Source of the DNA: Candidatus Methanoperedens sp.
GTDB taxonomy: Archaea; Halobacteriota; Methanosarcinia; Methanosarcinales; Methanoperedenaceae
DNA length: 32,000 nt
NCBI GenBank assembly: GCA_027460535.1
Contig: JAPZAR010000006.1
Coordinates: 1-32,000 of the forward strand
Direction: 5' to 3'
Of this stretch, positions 7,364-18,540 are shown piece by piece; within the stretch, counting starts at the first letter, position 1, and each line of letters opens with the position of its first letter. The notes beneath the pieces were generated by a model. The model was given only the letters and a program-made list of their open reading frames with translations, made no database searches and was not told the origin of the DNA. The translations under genes and the position numbers were made by a program.

Positions 7364-7603
7364 ATGTTTGCAGAACAGAAAAATATCGATGAATTGTCAC
7401 AGAAGTCAAATAAATATTTGAATGATTTCATGAATAAAATAGTTGTTTGTGAAACCTTGAGCGGGAAAACAATAACGGGAATATTGACAGGTTGTGACAA
7501 GTATGAACTTATTTTAGTGGAAACAAAGGATATTAAATCAAAGAAACCGATAAAAACCATTGTCTATAAACATGGTCTGGTAAGTATCCGGGAATTGGAT
7601 TAA
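7364..7603 (+). CDS. Small Sm-fold / Hfq-like RNA-binding protein (putative)
   Basis: 79 aa. The pattern ..KIVVCETLSGKTITGILTGCDKYELILVE..TIVYKHGLVSI.. matches Sm1 (hydrophobic-x-L-x-x-G-x-x-x-x-G) and an Hfq-type Sm2 'YKH' motif. It is an isolated ORF in an otherwise ORF-poor AT-rich region. Confidence 0.45.
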   Translation: MFAEQKNIDELSQKSNKYLNDFMNKIVVCETLSGKTITGILTGCDKYELILVETKDIKSKKPIKTIVYKHGLVSIRELD

Positions 7604-8173: not shown

Positions 8174-8425
8174 ATGGAATTTAAAGAAATAAATATACCG
8201 GGAGGTATCATCCAGCAAATTGATCGCGAAGGATTGTTTGCTGGCATCGCAGTTGATGCGGGAAATGGACCAGTTCCAGAGTTCATGAATTTTTTTCCCA
8301 AAGTAGTACTCGTCCATGACCGGTCTTCATGGAAGATGGTTGGGGAGATAGACATGGAAAGGGCAAGATATCTTCTAAGTACCGACGAAATGTTAGAAGA
8401 AATGCTGGGCAAAACCCAGGGGTAA
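8174..8425 (+). CDS. Small conserved hypothetical protein (PHA-locus small protein, paralog A1)
   Basis: 83 aa with a strong SD (GGAAGGTGA) 8 nt upstream. It is paralogous to the 11197-11436 product, sharing N-terminal ..Q(Q/E)ID.EG.F.. and C-terminal ..ERARYLLS.DEM.EEMLG. Confidence 0.6.
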   Translation: MEFKEINIPGGIIQQIDREGLFAGIAVDAGNGPVPEFMNFFPKVVLVHDRSSWKMVGEIDMERARYLLSTDEMLEEMLGKTQG

Positions 8426-8436
8426 GCTGGCTACTC

Positions 8437-8628
8437 ATGGATATATTTGATGTATTGACAGCAATTTCAAAAAGAAAGATGGCATTCATGCATGCAGGTG
8501 TGAACGAAAATGAAGCCTTGATCAAGGCTGAATTTTATGTATCTAAAGATTATCACATACCGTTGCTTGATATCAAAAAGTTGTTGGGAGTGAGATTTAT
8601 TCCCACTGGACTGGTTGAGAATAAATAA
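8437..8628 (+). CDS. Possible small ORF (63 aa), unknown function
   Basis: The ATG at 8437 begins MDIFDVLTAISKRK... This ORF fills the gap between the A1 gene and the first PhaE-module repeat gene. The ORF-track version (8329) would overlap A1, so I prefer the internal Met. I recognise no homology. Confidence 0.3.
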   Translation: MDIFDVLTAISKRKMAFMHAGVNENEALIKAEFYVSKDYHIPLLDIKKLLGVRFIPTGLVENK

Positions 8629-8667
8629 AGACCCCGTATACGGGGACTAAATAAAGAGATGAATAAT

Positions 8668-9780
8668 ATGGTTAAAAAAACTGAAGACAGAAAAGATATA
8701 CACGAAGAGAATAAGGATAGTTTCAAGACTTCCGAAGACAGCTACACAGCCGTTTCAAAAATGTGGGAGGATTCCTACTTAAAGCTATACAGGCCCTGGT
8801 TCGAGTCCACAGAAGCGCTGTTCGGGAAGGCGTTTGAACTCTCAAAAGATGCTGCACCTGAAAAATTTAAGGAATTTTATGATGAATGGATGAAAACGTC
8901 CCAGAACAGCTTCGGAAAATTTTATGAAATGCCGACCCTTGAATCCAATAAGGAAACATTTGAGAAACTCTTGAGTAGCGCAGATGAATCGAATAAAATC
9001 TATATGTTACGGATCGCCGAATTAGAGGAGAATTCCAGGGCTACCCGCGAAGTACTCCAGGGCGAAGCAGATCCTGCAAAATATAAAGAGGTCTATGAGA
9101 TGTGGATCAAGTCATATGGAAAAATGCTCGACGAGCTTCTTACTCTGCCATTGCGGCAAAATATGAAAGAGATCTTTGAGAACGTCACAGGCGTACCGGA
9201 TTTCTATTCAACATCATTTGAGCAGATATCAAAACTATGGAAAGATTCATACGCAAAGCTATACGTGCCGTATATCGACTCTATGCTGGAGCTTTCAGCG
9301 AAATCAGCAGAGATCTCCCGGGGGAATGCGAGCCCTGAAGCCTATAAGGAATTTTATACATTATGGATGGATACATATCAGGAGACCTATGGAAGGTTGT
9401 TTGATACCCAGTCCATGCGGCCTTCAAAGGAAGTTTTGGAGTATTTCGTACGGAGCGAAAACGTTAATCTGAACCTCTACAAGTCCTGGATAGCAACCCT
9501 TGAAAAAATGTCACAGAAAGCCAGGGAACTATCAGAAAAGAGCGCAGGTCCAGAGGCACATACGGAATTTTATAATCTCTGGGCACAAACATATGAAAAG
9601 GCACTTGCCAACATCTTTGAGAACACGCCCACATTCAGCCCGTTTAAAGAGATTATGGAGCCTGTAAAGAATGCGGCCAGGATATACGCAGATACATTTG
9701 CCAGCATATCCAATATATGGATGAAATCGGGTGTTCATTCAGCGTCAGCGTATCCGAGAAAGGGAAAGCATACAACATAA
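8668..9780 (+). CDS. PhaE-N-module tandem-repeat protein, paralog 1 (candidate phasin / PHA granule protein)
   Basis: It starts MVKKTE.. like its paralogs (the ORF-track start at 8659 is also possible). It carries four copies of the P-E/A-x-Y-K-E-F-Y-x-x-W-x-x-T-Y motif, which is also present in the adjacent PhaE. Confidence 0.8.
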   Translation: MVKKTEDRKDIHEENKDSFKTSEDSYTAVSKMWEDSYLKLYRPWFESTEALFGKAFELSKDAAPEKFKEFYDEWMKTSQNSFGKFYEMPTLESNKETFEKLLSSADESNKIYMLRIAELEENSRATREVLQGEADPAKYKEVYEMWIKSYGKMLDELLTLPLRQNMKEIFENVTGVPDFYSTSFEQISKLWKDSYAKLYVPYIDSMLELSAKSAEISRGNASPEAYKEFYTLWMDTYQETYGRLFDTQSMRPSKEVLEYFVRSENVNLNLYKSWIATLEKMSQKARELSEKSAGPEAHTEFYNLWAQTYEKALANIFENTPTFSPFKEIMEPVKNAARIYADTFASISNIWMKSGVHSASAYPRKGKHTT

Positions 9781-9849
9781 GCGAATCAGATGGTTTAAAT
9801 ATAAAATACCCCGTATTTAAATACTGGTATCGCAGCTCCACAAGTGCGG

Positions 9850-9884
9850 TTTAAGATTGGAAAAATCCAATCTTAAATTTTATT
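9850..9884 (+). terminator. Hairpin (TTTAAGATTGG / CCAATCTTAAA, 6-nt loop) followed by a T-rich tract; putative terminator after paralog 1
   Basis: An 11-bp perfect stem spans 9850-9860 and 9867-9877, followed by TTTTATT. Confidence 0.45.
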
Positions 9885-9914
9885 GTAAACCACATCTATC
9901 TCAATATTAATTTA

Positions 9915-9926
9915 ATGATTAATCAT
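9915..9926. promoter_or_regulatory. Second copy of the ATGATTAATCAT palindrome, with a partial third copy at 9929-9941 and a TATA-like TTATATATGATA at 9956-9967. This is the putative promoter/operator of paralog 2.
   Basis: Exact repeat of the 7970-7981 element, with the same ~40 bp spacing to the TATA-like box. Confidence 0.5.
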
Positions 9927-10080
9927 AATTTAATGATTAATATAGAAAAATAACTTTATATATGATAAAGAAGATGTAGGCATAGCTAAATCGGGTAGAT
10001 GCTGAATTTCGGGATCGTGGGGAAACCATCCATGATAGAACTGCCGGTTTAGATAAAATAAATTGGAGAAGGGAATTATT

Positions 10081-11169
10081 ATGGTCAAGAAAACTGAAGA
10101 AAAAAAATATATGAACGAAGAAAACAAGAATTTTTCCAAGACATGGGAAGACAACTATACGGCTGTTTCAAAAATGTGGGAGGATTCCTACTTAAAGCTA
10201 TACAGGCCCTGGTTCGAATCCACAGAAGCGCTGTTCGGGAAAGCGTTTGAACTCTCAAAAGATGCTGCACCTGAAAAATTTAAGGAATTTTATGATACAT
10301 GGGTGAAAACATACCAGAACAGCTTCGGAAAATTTTATGAAATCCCGACCCTGGAGTCCAACAAGGAAACATTTGAGAAACTCCTCATCAGCGCAGATGA
10401 ATCGAATAAAATCTACAGGTTACGGATCGCCGAATTAGAGGAGAATTCCAGGGCTACCCGCGAAGTACTCCAGGGCGAAGCAGATCCTGCAAAATATAAA
10501 GAAGTCTATGAGATGTGGATCAAATCATATGGAAAAATGCTCGACGAGCTTCTTACTCTGCCATTGCGGCAAAATATGAAAGAGATCTTTGAGAATGTCA
10601 CAGGCGTACCGGATTTCTATTCAACGACATTTGAGCAGATATCAAAACTATGGAAAGATTCATACGCAAAGCTATACGTGCCGTATATGGACTCTATGCT
10701 GGAGCTTTCAGAGAAATCAGCAGAAATCTCCCGGGGGAATGCGAGCCCTGAAGCCTATAAGGAATTTTATACATTATGGATGGATACTTATCAGGAGACC
10801 TATGGAAGGTTGTTTGATACCCAGTCCATGCGGCCTTCAAAGGAAGTTTTGGAGTATTTCGTACGGAGCGAAAACGTTAATCTGAACCTCTACAAGTCCT
10901 GGATAGCAACCCTTGAAAAACTGTCACAAAAAGCCAAGGAACTATCAGAAAAGAGCGCAGATCCAGAGGCACATACGGAATTTTATAATCTCTGGGCACA
11001 AACATATGAAAAGGCACTTGCCAACTTCTTTGAGAACACGCCCACATTCAGCCCGTTTAAAGAGATTATGGAGCCTGTAAAGAATGCGGCCAGGATATAC
11101 GCAGATACATTTACCAGCATGTCAAAGATCTGGATGAAATCGTACACCGCCTCCACAAGTGGGGCTTAA
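10081..11169 (+). CDS. PhaE-N-module tandem-repeat protein, paralog 2
   Basis: Starting at the ATG at 10081 gives MVKKTEEKK.., with GGAGAAGGG upstream (the ORF-track TTG at 10063 is less likely). It is collinear with paralog 1, has no indels over 1062 nt, and differs at only a few percent of positions. Confidence 0.8.
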   Translation: MVKKTEEKKYMNEENKNFSKTWEDNYTAVSKMWEDSYLKLYRPWFESTEALFGKAFELSKDAAPEKFKEFYDTWVKTYQNSFGKFYEIPTLESNKETFEKLLISADESNKIYRLRIAELEENSRATREVLQGEADPAKYKEVYEMWIKSYGKMLDELLTLPLRQNMKEIFENVTGVPDFYSTTFEQISKLWKDSYAKLYVPYMDSMLELSEKSAEISRGNASPEAYKEFYTLWMDTYQETYGRLFDTQSMRPSKEVLEYFVRSENVNLNLYKSWIATLEKLSQKAKELSEKSADPEAHTEFYNLWAQTYEKALANFFENTPTFSPFKEIMEPVKNAARIYADTFTSMSKIWMKSYTASTSGA

Positions 11170-11196
11170 GAATTCAAAAATCCAAAAAATTAGAAT

Positions 11197-11436
11197 ATGG
11201 AGCTTAATCATATGGATCCTGAAGAAATTGGCTCACCCAATATTATAGACGGTGCAGTCCAGGAAATTGACAACGAAGGTTCGTTTATTAACATTGTGGG
11301 ATATGGGAATTATAAATTTTCCAATATCCTCCAAGAAATAGAAGTATACGGAGATACGCCTTCCGATATGTTTATAGAAAGAGCGCGATACCTGCTGAGT
11401 GCAGATGAAATGATAGAAGAAATGCTGGGGATGTGA
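11197..11436 (+). CDS. Small conserved hypothetical protein (PHA-locus small protein, paralog A2)
   Basis: 79 aa that shares the ..EIDNEGSF.. and ..IERARYLLSADEMIEEMLG motifs with the 8174-8425 product. Its stop lies 6 nt before the paralog 3 start. Confidence 0.6.
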   Translation: MELNHMDPEEIGSPNIIDGAVQEIDNEGSFINIVGYGNYKFSNILQEIEVYGDTPSDMFIERARYLLSADEMIEEMLGM

Positions 11437-11442
11437 ATTATT

Positions 11443-12540
11443 ATGGTCAAGAGAACTGAAGAAAAAAAAGACGTGAATGAAGAGAAGATTTCCAAGACAT
11501 GGGTTGACAGTTATGAAGCAGTTTCAAAAATGTGGGAGGATTCTTACTTAAAGCTATACAAGCCCTGGATCGAATCCACAGGAGAGATGCTTGAGAAGAC
11601 ATCTATTCTCTCAAAAGAAGCTGCTCCACAGAAATACAGGGAATTCTATGATGAATGGATTAAAACATACCAGAATACCTTTGGTAAATTTTATCCAATC
11701 CCAACACTGAAATCCAATAAAGAAACGCTTGAAAAATTCCTCTCAAGCGCAGAGGATTCCAATAAACTCTACAGGTCGTGGATCGAAGAGTTAGAAGATA
11801 ATTCCAGCAAGACAAGAGAGATACTTTCGGGCAATCCAGATCCGGCAAAATATAAAGAATGCTATGATATATGGATGAAGACTTATGAAAAAATATTCGA
11901 TGAGCTTTTAGAACTGCCTGCTCAAGAAAGTACAGAAGAGATATTTGGGAATTACATGGGCATACCAGATATCTACTTAGGGAGCTTTTTGCAGATGTCA
12001 AAACTGTGGAAGAAGTCATACGCACAGCTTTGCGGGCCATTGAATGAATCCATGCTGAAACTTTCCGAGAAAATGGCAGAAATCTCTCGGGGAGATGCAG
12101 GCCCAGAAGCCTATATGGAATTTTATACCTTATGGATGGATACATATCAGGAAATCTATGGAAAGCATATCCAGTCCATGGAACCTTCCAAGGTAATGTT
12201 TGAGCATTTTGTTCAGAGCACCAATATTTATGTGAGCATGTACAAGTCCTGGATAGCTGCACTTGAAAAAATGTCAGAAAAGGCTAAGGAGCTGTCGAAA
12301 CAAACCTCTGATCCAGAGGCATATAAAGAATTCTATAATCTATGGGTAAAGATGTATGAAAAGGCTTTTGATAGCTTTTTTGAGGACATGCCTACAGTAG
12401 GAGGCCCTATGAAAGATATCATGGAGTCTGTAAAGGTCATGGCTAAGATTTACGCTGACACATTTACCAAGATGTCAAAGATGTGGGTAAAATCTGATTT
12501 CGGTTCGGCATCAGCATATCCGGGAAAGAATAAAAAATGA
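11443..12540 (+). CDS. PhaE-N-module tandem-repeat protein, paralog 3
   Basis: 365 aa. By eye it is clearly more diverged from paralogs 1 and 2 than they are from each other, but it has the same four-motif architecture. Its stop overlaps the phaE start (ATGA). Confidence 0.8.
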   Translation: MVKRTEEKKDVNEEKISKTWVDSYEAVSKMWEDSYLKLYKPWIESTGEMLEKTSILSKEAAPQKYREFYDEWIKTYQNTFGKFYPIPTLKSNKETLEKFLSSAEDSNKLYRSWIEELEDNSSKTREILSGNPDPAKYKECYDIWMKTYEKIFDELLELPAQESTEEIFGNYMGIPDIYLGSFLQMSKLWKKSYAQLCGPLNESMLKLSEKMAEISRGDAGPEAYMEFYTLWMDTYQEIYGKHIQSMEPSKVMFEHFVQSTNIYVSMYKSWIAALEKMSEKAKELSKQTSDPEAYKEFYNLWVKMYEKAFDSFFEDMPTVGGPMKDIMESVKVMAKIYADTFTKMSKMWVKSDFGSASAYPGKNKK

Positions 12541-13109
12541 GCGATTCAGACGGGTTAAATATGGGAAAATCAGGTTTTGAATCCACCCAGGAATTTTTTG
12601 ACCAGTGGTTAAAGGTATACAACGCCACCACAGGCAGGCTCGTAGAGATGCCTGCCCTGGGTCCAGCGCGTGAGAAATCTGAAAAAATGATGAAGGGTTT
12701 CTCTACCTTTGTTAACCTTTATGCCGCAGGGATGGATACCAGTTCTAATTTCCAGGTTGTATTCATGGAAGCAATGCGCAAAGTGCAGGAAAAGACAGCA
12801 ACCGATATGGAAGGGGAAATCAGTCCTGAGAAATGCAAAGATTTTTACAAGATCTGGATAGAGACGTATAGCGAGACTTTCAAGGAATTCTTGAAATCAG
12901 GCCACTTTGCGTCGGATATGGGGAAATTAAATTCGAATTTAATGGAATTTCAAAAATACAACAGGGAAATGCTTGAAGAGAATTATCTAAAACCCATGAA
13001 TCTCCCTACAAAGACGGAAATCGACGAGATCAACAAAGAGTTGTATTCCCTTAAGAAAACAGTAAAAGAACTGACCAGCCAGATCAGAGAACTAAAGGAG
13101 AAAAAATAG
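12537..13109 (+). CDS. phaE: Class III PHA synthase subunit PhaE (short archaeal form)
   Basis: 190 aa with ..MPALGPAREKSEK.. and the ..NLPTKTEIDEINKELYSLKK.. PhaE-box-like segments. It lies directly upstream of phaC. Confidence 0.8.
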   Translation: MSDSDGLNMGKSGFESTQEFFDQWLKVYNATTGRLVEMPALGPAREKSEKMMKGFSTFVNLYAAGMDTSSNFQVVFMEAMRKVQEKTATDMEGEISPEKCKDFYKIWIETYSETFKEFLKSGHFASDMGKLNSNLMEFQKYNREMLEENYLKPMNLPTKTEIDEINKELYSLKKTVKELTSQIRELKEKK

Positions 13110-13130: not shown

Positions 13131-14321
13131 ATGAACGGACTTAATTTAATAGGAGATTATGAGAAATTCAAATGTGGAATGGAATTATTCCTGAAACCAC
13201 CCGAATTTTCGGTTGGAACAACGCCATCGAAGATCATTTATTCCGAAGATAAGATGAAACTTATCCATTATATCCCAGCTGTTGAAAAACCACATCAAGT
13301 TCCAATACTCATAGTGTATGCACTCGTGAACCGGTACTACATTCTGGATCTCCAACCAGATAAGAGTGTGATAAAGAAGCTTTTGGAAGAAGGTTTTGAT
13401 GTTTATGTCATTGACTGGGGATATCCATCGGGTGCAGACAGATACCTCACACTCGACGATTATGTGAACGGTTATATAAATAATGCTGTGGAAAAGATCA
13501 TAGAGCTTTCCAGGCAGGATAAGATTACGCTGCTGGGAGTATGTCAGGGTGGGACTCTTTCTGTGATGTATGCCGCACAGCATCCTGAAAAAGTAAAAAA
13601 TCTGGTTACTTTAGTGGCTCCTGTGGACTTTGATACTGATAAAGGGATGCTTCATCTCTGGGCAAAAAGCTTAGACGTGGATAAAATCGTGGACTACTAC
13701 GGAATAGTGCCCGGGGATTTCCTGAATGTCGGATTCCTGCTCACAGACCCATTCAGGCTTATGATCGATAAGTATGTAGGTCTGTTCGAACGGATCGAAT
13801 GCGAACCTGGAGATAAAGAAGGCGAGCTTCGAAATGAAGAGATTGTCAGGAATTTCCTTAGAATGGAGAAATGGATATTCGACAGTCCCGACCAGGCGGG
13901 GGAAACCTTCAGGCAGTTCATGAAAGACTGCTACCAGAAAAACCTTCTCATCAAGAATGAGATGAAGCTCAATGGTACGAAGATCAATTTGAAAAATATT
14001 ACCATGCCTTTGCTTAATGTCATGGCAGAATTCGACCACCTCGTTCCTAACGATGCAAGTAAGCCGTTGTCAAATGCGGTATCGAGTACAGATAAAGAGA
14101 CTCTGGTCTTCCCGACCGGTCATATAGGAATATTTGTGGGCTCAAAATCCCAGAAAGAGGTCTGTCCCAGGATCGCAGCGTGGTTGAAGCCCAGGTCTCT
14201 TTTCAATGGAAAAGGAGAAGAAAAGATTGAATCAGGAAACGAAGAGAAGCCTGAATTAGCCAAGGAAAAGACGCTTGAACAAAATAGAAGGAAGCGTAAA
14301 TCAAAGGTGAACAAAAAATGA
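13131..14321 (+). CDS. phaC: Class III PHA synthase catalytic subunit PhaC
   Basis: 396 aa with an alpha/beta-hydrolase fold, the lipase-box variant G-V-C-Q-G-G, and a C-terminal His motif (PTGHIGIFVG). It has a Lys/Glu-rich C-terminal tail. Its stop overlaps the phaB start. Confidence 0.85.
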   Translation: MNGLNLIGDYEKFKCGMELFLKPPEFSVGTTPSKIIYSEDKMKLIHYIPAVEKPHQVPILIVYALVNRYYILDLQPDKSVIKKLLEEGFDVYVIDWGYPSGADRYLTLDDYVNGYINNAVEKIIELSRQDKITLLGVCQGGTLSVMYAAQHPEKVKNLVTLVAPVDFDTDKGMLHLWAKSLDVDKIVDYYGIVPGDFLNVGFLLTDPFRLMIDKYVGLFERIECEPGDKEGELRNEEIVRNFLRMEKWIFDSPDQAGETFRQFMKDCYQKNLLIKNEMKLNGTKINLKNITMPLLNVMAEFDHLVPNDASKPLSNAVSSTDKETLVFPTGHIGIFVGSKSQKEVCPRIAAWLKPRSLFNGKGEEKIESGNEEKPELAKEKTLEQNRRKRKSKVNKK

Positions 14322-15055
14322 GACTTGAAAACAAAGTTGCAGTTATTACAGGAGCGGGAAGCGGTATTGGTAAAGAGACTGCGCTCCTGTTCGCAAAAGA
14401 AGGAGCCAAAGTTGTTGTAGCCGATATGAATGAAAGGGCTGGCGAGGAGACAGTAGAAGAGATCAAGAAAAATGGAGAGGGATTTTTTGTTAAATTAGAT
14501 GTATCCAACAGGGAACAAGCAAGACAGATGGTTAAAATCACTCTTGAAAAATATGGTAAAATAGACGTTTTGATAAATAATGCAGGCATTGTTCAGGATG
14601 CCTTTTTATCAAAAATGACTGAGGAACAGTGGGATAAGGTTATCAACGTCAATCTTAAAGGAGTTTTTAACTGCACCCAGGCTGTGGTTGAAGTCATGAT
14701 GAACCAGGGGAATGGTGTAATTATCAATACATCATCGATCGTAGGACTCAACGGCAATGTCGGCCAGGTCAATTATGCTGCAACAAAAGCCGGTCTGATA
14801 GGCATGACAAAGACCCTGGCAAAGGAACTCGGTAAAAAAGGGATACGGGTCAATGCTGTGGCGCCTGGGTTTATTACGACTCCTATGACCTCAAACGTAC
14901 CTGAAAAAATCCTTGAAATGATGAAAGAAAAAACTCCATTGCGCAGGCTGGGAGTAGCAAAGGATGTTGCCTATGCATATTTGTATCTGGCTTCGGATGA
15001 GGCAAACTTTATTAATGGGGCAGTGCTTTGTGTGGATGGCGGATTAGTAATTTAA
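14318..15055 (+). CDS. phaB: Acetoacetyl-CoA reductase / 3-oxoacyl reductase (SDR, FabG-like)
   Basis: 245 aa with TGAGSGIG, NNAG, and the S..Y...K catalytic pattern (YAATKAG). It sits between phaC and the thiolase gene. Confidence 0.8.
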   Translation: MRLENKVAVITGAGSGIGKETALLFAKEGAKVVVADMNERAGEETVEEIKKNGEGFFVKLDVSNREQARQMVKITLEKYGKIDVLINNAGIVQDAFLSKMTEEQWDKVINVNLKGVFNCTQAVVEVMMNQGNGVIINTSSIVGLNGNVGQVNYAATKAGLIGMTKTLAKELGKKGIRVNAVAPGFITTPMTSNVPEKILEMMKEKTPLRRLGVAKDVAYAYLYLASDEANFINGAVLCVDGGLVI

Positions 15056-15129: not shown

Positions 15130-16308
15130 ATGAATAATGTAGTTATTGTGTCGGCAACAAGAACTGCAGTGGGGAAATTCGGGGGAAGTTTGAAGGATTT
15201 CACCCCCGGACAACTTGGCTCGGTAGTGTTGAAAGATGCCCTTAAAAGGGGTAATGTTGAATCAAATGACGTTGATGAGGTAATCCTGGGAAATGTTCTT
15301 TCAGCAGGTCATGGCCAGAACGTGGCAAGACAGGCTGCGATCTGGGCGGGGATTCCAAAAGAGGTCCCTTCCTTTTGCGTTAATAAAGTGTGCGGCTCGG
15401 GCTTGAAATCGGTTGTTCTAGGTGCTCAAGCCATCATGCTGGGTGATGCGGATGTCGTCCTTGCAGGCGGCATGGAGTCCATGTCAACAGCCCCGTACGC
15501 GTTGAAAAAAAACCGGTGGGGAGCGAAGATGGGGAACGATGAAGTCGTGGATTTGATGATACATGATGGATTATGGGATATTTTCAACAATTATCATATG
15601 GGTGTAACAGCGGAGAACGTAGCAGAAAAATATAATGTTACACGGGACGACCAGGATGAATTCTCGGCAAAAAGCCAGAATAAGGCAGAAGCTGCAATCA
15701 AGGCTGGTAAGTTTAAAGATGAGATAGTCCCGATAGCAGTTCCCCAGCCAAAAGGCGAGCCCGTTCTCTTTGATACAGATGAATTCCCCAGGTTCGGCAC
15801 AACAAAAGAGACACTTGCAAAGCTAAAACCAGCATTTAAAAAGGATGGGACAGTAACTGCGGGCAATGCTTCAGGAATTAACGATGGAGCTGCTGCGGTT
15901 CTTCTTATGTCTGAAGAAAAGGCAAAAGACAAAGGGCTTGTGCCCCTGGCATCCATCAAAAGCTATGGATTATGTGGAGTTCCTCCTGAACTGATGGGTC
16001 TTGGTCCTATTTGTGCGACCAAGAGAGCCATAGAACGTGCTGGTATTGCTGCAGGCAAACTGGACGTGCTAGAACTCAATGAAGCCTTTGCATCACAGAG
16101 TATAGCAGTTAGCAGGGAACTGGGATTGAATCCTGACAGGGTTAATGTTAACGGCGGCGCTATAGCCCTCGGGCATCCCATAGGAGCCAGCGGCACAAGG
16201 ATACTGGTCACACTCCTGCACGAATTAGCAAGAAGGAAAGGCACCTACGGCCTTGCAACCCTCTGTATTGGAGGAGGGCAGGGTATCGCCATGGTGGTAA
16301 AGAGATAG
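15130..16308 (+). CDS. phaA: Acetyl-CoA acetyltransferase (bacterial-type thiolase II)
   Basis: 392 aa with the ..[10 protein letters not shown].. active-site Cys, ..[12 protein letters not shown].., ..[15 protein letters not shown].. and ..CIGGGQG... Confidence 0.9.
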
Positions 16309-16313
16309 ATAAT

Positions 16314-17165
16314 ATGGGAAAGAAAGCAGGACTGGAAGGTAAAGTCGCTTTGGTCACAGGAGGATCAAGGGGGATAGGTCAGGCGATCGCCTTGCGTCTG
16401 GCTGAAGACGGCGCGGACGTTGCAATTAATTATCAGGCAACTAAAGAGCAAGCTGAGAAGTTATCAAAGCTCATAGACCAGATGGGCATGATGGACGAAT
16501 TTGATAGATTATCCCTGAAGATAGACCTGATGGAGACAAAGGAGAACGCGAAGGAAGTATCAGAGTTAATAGATTCTATGGGCAAGCATTCTATCATATG
16601 CCAGGCAAACGTCAATGACTTTGAGCAGGTGAACAGGATGCGGGATGAGGTGGTAAAGCAGTTCGGCAGAATAGATATACTGGTCAATAACGCAGGAATA
16701 GTAAGGGATAAATCGTTTGTAAAAATGACTCCCCAGATGTGGACAGAAGTATTATCTGTTAACCTGGACGGTGCTTTCTACTGCACCAAAGCGGTTATAG
16801 AGGGTATGCTGGAGAGGAAGTATGGCAGGATCGTGAATATCTCCTCAGTTATTGGGAGGATGGGCAACCGTGGACAGGCGAACTATGCAGCTTCGAAGGC
16901 AGGATTGATAGCTCTATCGCAAACGCTGGCAAAAGAATTTGCAGGCAAGGGTATAACCGTGAACGCTGTTGCGCCTGGATTCATAGAAACGGATATGCTA
17001 AAATCGGTTCCCACAGAAATAATGGGGAAAATCCTGGCAGAGATACCCCTGGGAAGACTCGGGAAGCCATCCGAGGTGGCAGGTGCGGTGGCATACCTGG
17101 TCTCCGAAGATGGGGATTACATAACAGGTCAGGTCATTGATATAAATGGGGGTCTTTACATCTGA
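16314..17165 (+). CDS. Second FabG-like SDR reductase with a ~32-aa internal duplication
   Basis: 283 aa with TGGSRGIG, NNAG and YAASKAG. Extra sequence between beta2 and beta3 contains a duplicated helix: KEQAEKLSKLIDQMG versus KENAKEVSELIDSMG. Confidence 0.8.
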   Translation: MGKKAGLEGKVALVTGGSRGIGQAIALRLAEDGADVAINYQATKEQAEKLSKLIDQMGMMDEFDRLSLKIDLMETKENAKEVSELIDSMGKHSIICQANVNDFEQVNRMRDEVVKQFGRIDILVNNAGIVRDKSFVKMTPQMWTEVLSVNLDGAFYCTKAVIEGMLERKYGRIVNISSVIGRMGNRGQANYAASKAGLIALSQTLAKEFAGKGITVNAVAPGFIETDMLKSVPTEIMGKILAEIPLGRLGKPSEVAGAVAYLVSEDGDYITGQVIDINGGLYI

Positions 17166-17286: not shown

Positions 17287-18540
17287 ATGAAAAAAATTGC
17301 CATCGCATGCCAGGGCGGTGGAAGCCATACGGCTTTTACAGCTGGCGTGCTGAAAAGAATTCTAAAAGAAAACAAAAAAATGTACGACATTGTAGCTCTT
17401 AGCGGTACATCAGGTGGTGCTATCTGTGCTCTGCTGACCTGGTATGGTTTATTAACAGGTGGTAATGATAAAGCGGCCAAATTGCTGGATTCCTTCTGGA
17501 AAGATATTTCTGCCAATACATTTGGAGATATGCTCTTAAACGAATGGTTCGTCGGGACATCTCGCATGCAAAATGAAGGTTATGCAATACCTCAGATCAG
17601 CCCATATCTGTATCCCCCATTTGCGCAGGAGTATATGAGATCCCTTCTTGAAAAAAATGTAGAATTTGAAAAAATTAAGACATTTACTGATCCTCAACCT
17701 GAATTGCTTGTTGGAGCGGTTGATGTTCTTTCTGGTGATTTCAATGTTTTCAAGAATAGCAGGATTACTTCTGATGTAATTTTAGCTTCAGCGGCAATAC
17801 CAACTTTCTTACGGGCTGTGCCAGTTGATAAATATCTATTTGACTGGAATAAAATTCCAGGCGCTGATGATGAAAAGCTCATGGAATTTCTAAAACAAGA
17901 TTTCAATATTGAATGGACTGAAAATGCAAAAATTGAAAAAACCGATAATGGTAATATCGTAAAAGTTTATAAAGGAACAAAATCTCTTTTATGGGAACTT
18001 AACGATAAAAAAACCATTGTATATTTAAAAATCGATAAAAATAAAACGTATGAGTTTATCGTGAAGATGCAAAATGAAGAGATGAACATAGTCAAAAAAA
18101 GTGAGTATTGGGACGGCTTGTTTTCCCAGAATCCTCCCGTAAGAGATTTTATTTCTGGTATTGATGAAAAACCTGACGAGATATGGGTGATACAGATCAA
18201 TCCAAGAATGAATAAGAAATTGCCAGAGTCGATAGAAGCTATCGGCCATAGGCGAAATGAGCTTGCCGGAAATATTTCATTGTATCAGGAATTATTCTTT
18301 ATAGAAAAAGTCAATGAATGGATAGATAAAGGATATTTTGAAGGAACCAAAGCAAAATATAAACCTATTCAGGTGAGATTTATCAAGATGCTTCGCGAAC
18401 TGGATCTCGAAACAAAGCTTGATCGCCGTCCGGAATTCATAGAAGAAATGAAGAGCTACGGTGAAAAACAGGCCGAGGAATTTTTGAGACAGCCAGCCAA
18501 GCGCCATATGGAACGATTACGCAACCTTGTGGTTCAATGA
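17287..18540 (+). CDS. Patatin-like phospholipase-family hydrolase (candidate intracellular PHA depolymerase) with a 90-codon insertion
   Basis: It has a CQGGGSHTAF oxyanion motif, a G-T-S-G-G nucleophile elbow and a ..YWDGLF.. catalytic Asp motif. An AT-rich, Lys/Asn-rich insertion is encoded at 17836-18105. Confidence 0.8.
   Translation: MKKIAIACQGGGSHTAFTAGVLKRILKENKKMYDIVALSGTSGGAICALLTWYGLLTGGNDKAAKLLDSFWKDISANTFGDMLLNEWFVGTSRMQNEGYAIPQISPYLYPPFAQEYMRSLLEKNVEFEKIKTFTDPQPELLVGAVDVLSGDFNVFKNSRITSDVILASAAIPTFLRAVPVDKYLFDWNKIPGADDEKLMEFLKQDFNIEWTENAKIEKTDNGNIVKVYKGTKSLLWELNDKKTIVYLKIDKNKTYEFIVKMQNEEMNIVKKSEYWDGLFSQNPPVRDFISGIDEKPDEIWVIQINPRMNKKLPESIEAIGHRRNELAGNISLYQELFFIEKVNEWIDKGYFEGTKAKYKPIQVRFIKMLRELDLETKLDRRPEFIEEMKSYGEKQAEEFLRQPAKRHMERLRNLVVQ

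Follow-up and report, generated by a model that had tools for sequence, protein, structure and literature searches.

The question raised by the locus described here is what kind of proteins are encoded by par1, par2 and par3, three open reading frames (ORFs) for about 365 amino acids (aa) each, which lie one after another ahead of the genes phaE and phaC of a class III polyhydroxyalkanoate (PHA) synthase in Candidatus Methanoperedens sp. In Methanoperedens, a methane-oxidising archaeon that acts as a key methane filter of fresh waters, PHA serves as an important sink of electrons and carbon. The positions given below are those of the window, i.e. the whole stretch of 32,000 nucleotides (nt) of the Candidatus Methanoperedens sp. 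contig that was analyzed, and P stands for the proteins of the par1, par2 and par3 type. The three ORFs, which a preliminary description of the sequence had placed ahead of the synthase genes, are all present there. The starts at 8668 and 10081 were preferred over those of longer ORFs from 8659 and 10063 because the homologues begin with MVKK. It will be argued that P is a conserved, lineage-restricted family of Methanoperedenaceae, and that, judging from its sequence, it may with a probability of about one half be a PhaE-derived, phasin-like granule coat protein or synthase scaffold. The features that carry the argument are the following.

8668..9780, + strand: par1 (clade B type), 370 aa, PhaE-like without the tail; the modules lie at about nt 8719-9144 and 9193-9621
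10081..11169, + strand: par2, tail-less PhaE-like protein, 362 aa, recent par1 duplicate; approximate modules at nt 10132-10557 and 10606-11034
11443..12540, + strand: par3 (clade A type), 365 aa, PhaE-like without the tail; stop overlapping the phaE start (ATGA)
11488-11913 (residues 16-157) and 11962-12384 (residues 174-314), + strand: the two modules of par3, which has an extra C-terminal helix at residues 322-358
12537..13109, + strand: phaE, short-form PhaE, 190 aa; PF09712 with 91.6 bits, model positions 156-310
12588-12893 (residues 18-119) and 12900-13106 (residues 122-190), + strand: incomplete module and C-terminal tail of PhaE, respectively
13131..14321, + strand: phaC, catalytic subunit of a PHA synthase of class III, 396 aa; TIGR01836 with 474 bits (cutoff 365)

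Relationship of the P proteins to PhaE

Each P protein is composed of two homologous halves, in agreement with the preliminary description. When the N-terminal half was compared to the C-terminal half with hhalign, using a 24-sequence family profile, they aligned over 140 columns with 39% identity and an E value of 5.4e-33. Offset alignments (E values of 1e-13 and 3e-9) indicate that each half consists in turn of two units of about 72-80 aa, and the motif P-x-x-Y-K-E-F-Y-x-x-W-x-x-x-Y occurs four times in each P (in par3 at residues 62, 134, 221 and 291) and twice in PhaE. The profile comparison was used in place of self-BLAST, which for the internal repeats returned only the identity match.

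The similarity of P to PhaE was evident by several procedures. In BLASTP, par3 matched the neighboring PhaE in three registers, with E values of 1e-12, 9e-11 and 2e-10. The P halves aligned to residues 18-119 of PhaE with E values of 1.1e-12 and 7.8e-14 against the full-length PhaE profile, and of 7.4e-14 and 4.7e-15, profile to profile, against residues 1-125 alone. So, the match of each half to the N-terminal region of PhaE, previously proposed from motifs, is statistically significant, and the count of seven module copies in 4.5 kb is correct. Concerning the curated models, PF09712 (gathering threshold 25.7) gave 32.4 bits with par3, and fell just below the threshold with par1 (23.9, model positions 29-251) and par2 (23.2); all the P family members scanned (132/132) matched it at E ≤ 0.01. 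With TIGR01834 (cutoff 154.95), par3 gave 13.6 bits, par1 and par2 were unlisted, and 86 of the 132 members gave weak matches, with a best E value of 2.4e-7; the genuine short PhaE of the window, with 81 bits, is likewise under this full-length cutoff.

What P does not have is the C-terminal tail. Its matches to PF09712 are confined to model positions 29-255, and the conserved C-terminal segment of PhaE corresponds to about positions 251-311. A hidden Markov model (HMM) of the tail (PhaE residues 122-190) matched PhaE and long-form PhaE proteins, and found no tail either in the P representatives P0241-P0289 or in the P ORFs of the 72 loci considered in the next section, which bears out the earlier remark that this segment is seen only in PhaE itself. 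The C-terminus of P is made of an extra helix and a short terminal stretch (e.g. ...SASAYPGKNKK). As a side observation, the tail of the window PhaE gave weak matches to the C-terminal part of phasin models (TIGR01837, E 0.0014; PF05597, E 0.05), as did long-form PhaE with TIGR01837 (E 2e-4), and a distant relationship between the PhaE tail and the phasins of the PF05597 type is possible.

When 1.84 billion representative proteins were searched exhaustively with the profile, 256 matches at E ≤ 0.001 were obtained. Those better than about 1e-28 were tail-less P-like proteins (fragments and, at 50% identity, about eleven clusters of full length), and all the named members among them were from Methanoperedens or from an unclassified archaeal metagenome-assembled genome (MAG). 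The weaker matches were mostly tail-bearing proteins of 360-450 aa, i.e. bacterial long-form PhaE, with Clostridium and Clostridiales as named examples. Ten of these weaker matches were scanned and all matched PF09712, eight of them over essentially the full model, and P0348 only over positions 30-257, without the tail.

P and long-form PhaE are collinear: residues 16-339 of P align to residues 11-323 of 380 with an E value of 2.7e-41 and 24% identity. The short Methanoperedens PhaE corresponds to residues 191-367 of the long form (E 4.4e-39), which has an internal N/C duplication of its own (E 1.1e-16, 22% identity). This collinearity means that a tandem-module build of about 365 aa is the normal architecture of PhaE, covered by full-length PF09712, and is not new, contrary to what had been suggested; the architecture of P is that of a PhaE variant with precedent. 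What is unusual in P is the missing tail together with the coexistence with a separate short PhaE. The preliminary description had also contemplated that P could match a long-form PhaE family of known function; the match was found, but the N-terminal region of the long form is uncharacterised too.

The likenesses and differences among the three kinds of protein can be put as follows. Bacterial long-form PhaE (PF09712/TIGR01834, about 330-450 aa) resembles P in its two helical modules, internal duplication and adjacency to phaC, but it bears the tail of roughly 55-70 aa that is present in every genuine PhaE, its halves are only 22% identical, compared to the 39% of P, and, unlike it, P is encoded in multiple copies in addition to a separate PhaE. 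The short archaeal PhaE shares with P the operon and the module with the F-Y-x-x-W-x-x-x-Y motifs, but it consists of one incomplete module plus the tail, whereas P contains two complete modules and the extra helix.

Concerning the origin of the two halves, the N-terminal half of P scored 156.5 against the tail-proximal module of the long form and 117.4 against its N-terminal module, and the C-terminal half 175.9 and 109.2, respectively, while the score of one P half against the other was 200.8. So, the halves are each other's closest relatives, and their better scores with the tail-proximal module point to a duplication of younger date, or to a homogenisation, of the module kept by short PhaE as their origin. 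The idea of a duplicated PhaE module is upheld in this form. However, the P module includes the first long helix, which the present short PhaE does not contain; P was thus not assembled from short PhaE as it now stands, and its source must have been a more complete PhaE. The simpler possibility of a long-form PhaE with its tail merely cut off is weakened, as both halves match the tail-proximal module best.

Distribution, gene order and selection of the P genes

One genome per species was scanned, starting from two P-derived peptide patterns and thus with a bias to the P family, and 72 loci were obtained, nearly all of them from Methanoperedens or Methanoperedenaceae MAGs. More than 500 homologues of P were found. 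The order P...phaE...phaC occurred in 45 of the 72 loci, with one P copy in 26, two in 17 and three in 2, which places the three copies of the window at the high end. The remaining loci (about 26) were P-only, some of them on truncated contigs. In three lookups seeded with PhaE, a P gene was directly upstream of phaE in all three. By our own tally, there are about 2-6 P genes and 1-3 phaEC loci per genome; the P loci number four in BLZ2, four in METP1 and five in Mnv1. The MAG that matches the window contains on contig k141_674971 (L077, 5913-11514) a second locus with the order P (361 aa)-PhaE (182 aa)-PhaC (385 aa) followed by the genes of a short-chain dehydrogenase/reductase (SDR), a thiolase and another SDR. 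In several further genomes the phaEC loci number two or three, and PHA synthase operons are often duplicated in Methanoperedens.

In a neighbour-joining tree, the P proteins form two old clades, which are kept side by side in many genomes. Clade A (par3 type, with the SASAYPGKNKK ending) usually shows a 4-nt overlap with the gene of a PhaE of 190-193 aa, and clade B (par1/par2 type) appears as an upstream tandem copy or as the partner of a PhaE of 181-184 aa. The 4-nt overlap of the P stop with the phaE start was found in the window and in 13 other loci, and a gap of 32 nt or less in at least 28 loci. Among par1, par2 and par3 the ratio of nonsynonymous to synonymous substitution rates (dN/dS) was 0.26-0.29 (0.28 for par1 against par2, with dS 0.17), i.e. 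the P copies are under purifying selection. The mean identities to the window copy were 66% for P, 74% for PhaE and 78% for PhaC, so P diverges faster than the enzyme.

Within the window, par1 is 91% identical to par2 and 61% identical to par3, and as DNA the three genes repeat in tandem, with periods of 1413 and 1356 nt. The par1/par2 repeat (period 1413 nt) is 89-98% identical. Positions 9404-9633 of par1 and 10817-11046 of par2 are 98% identical over 230 nt, the remainder of both genes being 89-91% identical, which suggests gene conversion between the tandem copies. Elsewhere, stand-alone P variants of 420-560 aa with an N-terminal extension were observed (L047, 7542-9050; L056, 7383-9056; L057, 4602-6179; L063, 3943-5442), and P0243 and P0248 are also long variants of this kind. 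The extension is made of 2-3 highly charged repeats, e.g. TTPSSWWEERKTIERPxPEDQERRYREEQERYEQERQ, which are referred to below as the SSWWEERKTIERP repeats.

Some P-phaE-phaC loci, with 51-55% GC, were found in MAGs labelled Actinomycetota, Dehalococcoidales, Methanomassiliicoccaceae and Methanomicrobiales (L053, L070, L059 and L029, respectively). The PhaC proteins of L070, L059 and L029 are 74-80% identical to that of the window (74-77% for the Dehalococcoidales and Methanomassiliicoccaceae labels); the Actinomycetota-labelled L053 contains only a 90-aa PhaC fragment, with 63% identity over that piece. A spread of P outside the lineage was rejected, given the 74-80% identity of the full-length PhaC proteins, and the oddly labelled loci are probably mis-binned contigs or belong to higher-GC relatives of Methanoperedens.

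The family seems to be present also in Borgs. The supplement of Schoelmerich et al. 2024 (PMC11208441), the text of which is silent on it, contains a Borg protein subfamily, 'subfam2598', of 369-371 aa and annotated PF09712|PF09712. It is flagged as multicopy, and such subfamilies are defined as core proteome of all 17 Borgs (PMC11208441). In Black Borg one copy is directly upstream of the genes of a 412-aa PhaE and a PhaC (PMC11208441). From length, domains and position, rather than from sequences, we infer that subfam2598 is the P family: the size and the double PF09712 annotation are the same, with the difference that the neighboring Borg PhaE has 412 aa and, judged by this length, is probably of the long form. 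The P-like genes of Black Borg have a GC fraction of 0.36-0.39, above that of their Borg neighbors (about 0.28-0.32). Black Borg genes 516, 743-745 and 445/493 comprise the P-like genes, the PhaE and PhaC genes next to them and those of the small PF05597 proteins mentioned below. The same paper mentions a highly expressed 'phasin', which could not be traced to any gene.

No paper describing the P family was found in the searchable literature, and in this sense the family is undescribed, in line with the preliminary description. The proteins are already flagged in the databases: PF09712 matches P, some NCBI records name P proteins PhaE, and the Borg supplement carries the double PF09712 label. 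The Methanoperedens PHA papers speak only of phaC and phaE; a 2026 review, in which the control of electron flow into PHA is an open question, names only phaCE; the supplements of a salt-stress paper contain nothing on PhaE or phasin; and the searchable literature yielded no Methanoperedens granule proteome. A 2021 pangenome study reported that PhaE, unlike PhaC, is not a single gene cluster (PMC8561730), and we suspect that tail-less, PF09712-bearing P proteins may contribute to the split clusters. Concerning expression, the supplement of PMC13079737 contains BLZ2 transcriptomes in which, under three conditions, the gene following phaE gave 5, 16 and 104 transcripts per million, and phaE itself 7, 34 and 86. 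From the gene order and from locus L032, the gene following phaE would be P.

Possible role of the P proteins and alternative readings

The P proteins are of about 43 kDa, acidic (isoelectric point about 5.2) and hydrophilic overall, and the Pfam scan found no enzyme domain in them. Their content of F+W+Y is 14-15.5%, and roughly one third of the about 100 nearly invariant positions are aromatic. The AlphaFold2 (AF2) model of par3 is all-helical, with ten helices in a long-helix/short-helix pattern and no predicted strands, and the helices are amphipathic, with hydrophobic moments (muH) of 0.35-0.53. The mean predicted local distance difference test score (pLDDT) was 68 with a 54-sequence alignment, reaching 80-93 over residues 100-160, and 57 in an earlier model with 24 sequences. 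Foldseek comparison of the two AF2 models to the PDB gave no match better than E 0.25, the 14-3-3, talin and designed helical bundle matches being uninformative. Sequence and profile searches of the PDB found no solved PhaE relative; matches to apolipophorin-III and apolipoprotein E (E 0.04-0.5) were not significant and were not used.

Two kinds of phasin are to be compared with P. In haloarchaea the conserved order is maoC-phaR-phaP-phaE-phaC, with PhaP as the granule phasin and PhaR as an AbrB-type regulator (PMC7137286), and the pHM300 locus of Haloferax mediterranei, as retrieved, has the order phaR-phaP-phaE-phaC. Haloarchaeal PhaP (154 aa; Cai et al. 2012, cited in PMC7137286) is, like P, encoded directly upstream of phaE-phaC, acidic and predicted to be helical, and its structural role in the granule is the one proposed for P. 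However, PhaP is less than half the size of P and is not PhaE-derived, and hhalign of a 132-sequence P profile against H. mediterranei PhaP detected no relationship (E 0.25, probability 0.2%), as the preliminary description had anticipated. Homology to haloarchaeal PhaP or PhaR was rejected for P and for the small ORFs sA and sB described in the last section. On the synthase side, H. mediterranei PhaE (182 aa) gave a weak match with P (E 0.0017) and is 23% identical to the window PhaE (E 2e-11), and the window PhaC is 47% identical to the H. mediterranei one. With short PhaE homologous and PhaP and P unrelated, the two archaeal lineages share short PhaE-PhaC and have filled the upstream 'phasin slot' with unrelated proteins.

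The other kind is the Phasin_2 family (PF09361; PhaP1 type of Ralstonia eutropha), the members of which are, like P, amphipathic helical, non-catalytic, often multi-copy and encoded near pha genes, although the clear affiliation of P is with PhaE. Among the phasin Pfam families considered (PF09361, PF05597, PF09602 and PF09650), PF09361 gave weak matches in 27 of the 132 P members, with a best E value of 4e-6, being the second most frequent Pfam family after PF09712; P0252 reached 27.1 bits, over the gathering threshold of 24.9.

With this background, it seems reasonable to interpret P as a phasin-like granule coat or synthase scaffold. In its favor count the position of P in the place of the haloarchaeal phasin gene, the amphipathic helices, the aromatic richness, the Phasin_2 matches, the multiple copies and the co-expression with phaE in BLZ2. 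In the mechanism proposed, P, a non-catalytic accessory protein, would have evolved from the likewise non-catalytic synthase subunit PhaE by keeping two amphipathic, aromatic-rich helical-hairpin modules and losing the C-terminal tail. The polyester would be bound by the hydrophobic, aromatic faces of its helices, and P may also pack against the homologous module of PhaE, so that a coat could form around PhaE-PhaC as the polymer emerges. The par3-type copy is made in step with PhaE by translational coupling, and the extra tandem and dispersed copies could give a higher dosage or a more diverse coat. The homology, the loss of the tail, the gene order, the coupling, the selection and the copy number stand on observation, whereas binding to granules, a contact with PhaE and an effect on granule number and size are expectations. 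A bolder version, which we hold only tentatively and consider doubtful, is that Methanoperedenaceae and Borgs have a fifth kind of phasin, arisen from PhaE by tail loss and module duplication, which would co-assemble with PhaE so that the synthase nucleates its own coat, the Borg copies tuning the carbon and electron storage of the host.

Several points weigh against P being a coat or scaffold. For every member, the granule association is a prediction from sequence. The curated phasin models were not matched above threshold by the window proteins (par3 gave 15.6 bits with PF09361, against 24.9, with E 0.019, and par1 gave 17.7 bits with TIGR02131 phaP_Bmeg, against a cutoff of 109.3). Classical phasins, often multi-copy, are of roughly 11-25 kDa, and P, at 43 kDa, is two to three times that size. 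Major phasins are typically found at very high transcript levels, and the BLZ2 transcript attributed to P is modest, near those of phaE and phaC and below the level of a major phasin. The AF2 model is of only moderate confidence and has no informative structural analogue, and amphipathic helices with aromatic cores are also expected, equally, of an ordinary soluble helical bundle. Black Borg encodes small PF05597 'Phasin' proteins of 105-107 aa (PMC11208441), so that other phasin candidates are possible. Finally, so close a coupling to phaE would be expected as much of a stoichiometric subunit as of a coat protein.

This last point leads to a different reading, in which P would be an obligatory third subunit of the synthase, supplying in trans the N-terminal modules lost by short PhaE; P plus PhaE would then equal the long form, and full activity of PhaC would require a complex of P, PhaE and PhaC. 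P (long-form residues 11-323) and short PhaE (191-367) do tile the long form, with one module in common, the 4-nt overlap and the tiny P/phaE gaps are widely conserved, P was directly upstream in every PhaE-seeded lookup, and its presumed transcript level is near that of phaE. Yet haloarchaeal phaE and phaC alone, with no P homologue and with an unrelated phaP upstream, restore PHA synthesis (PMC7137286), and the P-like gene of Black Borg lies beside a PhaE that is probably already of the long form, which argues that P is not a mere replacement. Extra tandem copies and about 26 P-only loci are unexpected for a stoichiometric subunit, and both halves of P are tail-proximal-like, rather than in the N/C order of the long form. 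On balance, we regard a third subunit as the main rival reading, although an unlikely one. An improbable role, but one that would account for the charged SSWWEERKTIERP repeats of the long stand-alone variants as possible interaction modules, is that of an adaptor recruiting depolymerase, enzymes or cell structures to the granules, or controlling their partitioning. The cluster ends with a patatin-like gene and the granule depolymerase of Haloferax is patatin-like, the Borg authors consider a degradative function of the PHA cluster of Borgs possible, and Methanoperedens consumes PHA under salt or sulfide stress; but the patatin gene is not conserved beside the cluster in other loci, and the tightest and most conserved link of P is with phaE-phaC, which are genes of synthesis.

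Slightly more improbable still is that the tail-less P acts as a decoy or regulator, competing with PhaE or binding PhaE/PhaC non-productively, and in this way throttling polymerisation or setting the chain length. P has the PhaE module without the tail, which is the most PhaE-specific segment, and the variation from 1 to 3 copies per locus could tune the dose. Against it, an inhibitor coupled in fixed ratio to its target and kept in every locus seen would be an odd design, and the BLZ2 transcript attributed to P was co-induced with that of phaE, not anti-correlated. That the extra P copies are decaying duplicates or artefacts of gene prediction can hardly be credited: the par1/par2 duplication is recent, as its dS indicates, and an sA copy between both genes has degenerated, but the three ORFs are intact, their dN/dS values are low, and the more than 500 homologues, with two old clades retained and about 100 nearly invariant positions, speak for function.

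If P is a granule coat or a third synthase component, as the phasin-like and the subunit readings respectively propose, it would be a missing part in every current metabolic model of these archaea and an unrecognised conserved item of the Borg gene repertoire. It would represent a phasin-like protein arising from PhaE, if the former is true, and a natural dissection of PhaE into module and tail, by which the role of the N-terminal region of PhaE could become testable. At present, P is mis-annotated as hypothetical protein or as PhaE, which inflates or confuses PhaE counts.

Small ORFs and neighboring genes

The P, phaE and phaC genes belong to a co-directional row with the order sA1, sB, par1, par2, sA2, par3, phaE, phaC, SDR, thiolase, SDR and patatin-like gene. 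The members not given above are the following.

8174..8425, + strand: sA1, small ORF of 83 aa, conserved; opens the conserved arrangement sA-sB-P-phaE-phaC
8437..8628, + strand: sB, small ORF of 63 aa, conserved; lies after sA and ahead of the first P gene
11197..11436, + strand: sA2, second sA copy, 79 aa; ends 6 nt before par3; DNA repeat family D5
14318-15055, + strand: SDR/FabG-like reductase, monomer supply; Pfam adh_short; its start overlaps the phaC stop (ATGA)
15130-16308, + strand: thiolase, monomer supply; Pfam Thiolase_N/C
16314-17165, + strand: second SDR, monomer supply; Pfam adh_short
17287..18540, + strand: patatin-like protein; PF01734 Patatin, E 2.9e-14

The flanking genes are of the housekeeping type (MoeA, Kae1/TsaD, RIO kinase, Fae, FtsZ, CobQ), the window has 43% GC, and a Candidatus Methanoperedens MAG encodes a protein with 100% identity to its PhaE. 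The housekeeping flanks and this identity indicate that the locus is a chromosomal Methanoperedens PHA locus. The order of the monomer-supply genes (SDR-thiolase-SDR) is the same in related loci. The patatin-like gene was not found adjoining the cluster in the other loci scanned (1 match). By analogy with haloarchaeal PhaZh1, its product is a possible PHA depolymerase; the granule-bound PHA depolymerase of H. mediterranei is a patatin-like protein (PMC7137286).

The small ORFs sA1 and sA2 are paralogous (45% identity, E 4e-14), and sA1 of the window is without about 26 residues that are present in its orthologues. Of 73 sequences (the window and the 72 loci), 32 contain homologues of sA, of about 80-108 aa, mostly in the same orientation as a P gene and 7-320 nt upstream of it; those of sB, of about 51-65 aa, occur in 15 loci, where they precede a P gene by 16-127 nt. 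In one of the PhaE-seeded lookups, a 108-aa gene and a 51-aa gene were ahead of P. Neither sA nor sB gave any match with Pfam and NCBIfam or any similarity to haloarchaeal PhaR (AbrB type) and PhaP. They could be regulators or further granule proteins.

In the gene-poor, AT-rich 1.5 kb upstream of the cluster there is a gene for a small LSM-domain (Sm-like) protein, at 7364-7603, which neighbors P in just 3 sequences. Positions 8632-8645, after the stop of sB and ahead of the start of par1, form a perfect palindrome of 14 nt, CCCCGTATACGGGG (by chance, 0.03 would be expected); the other loci do not conserve it, and it could be a terminator or a processing hairpin.

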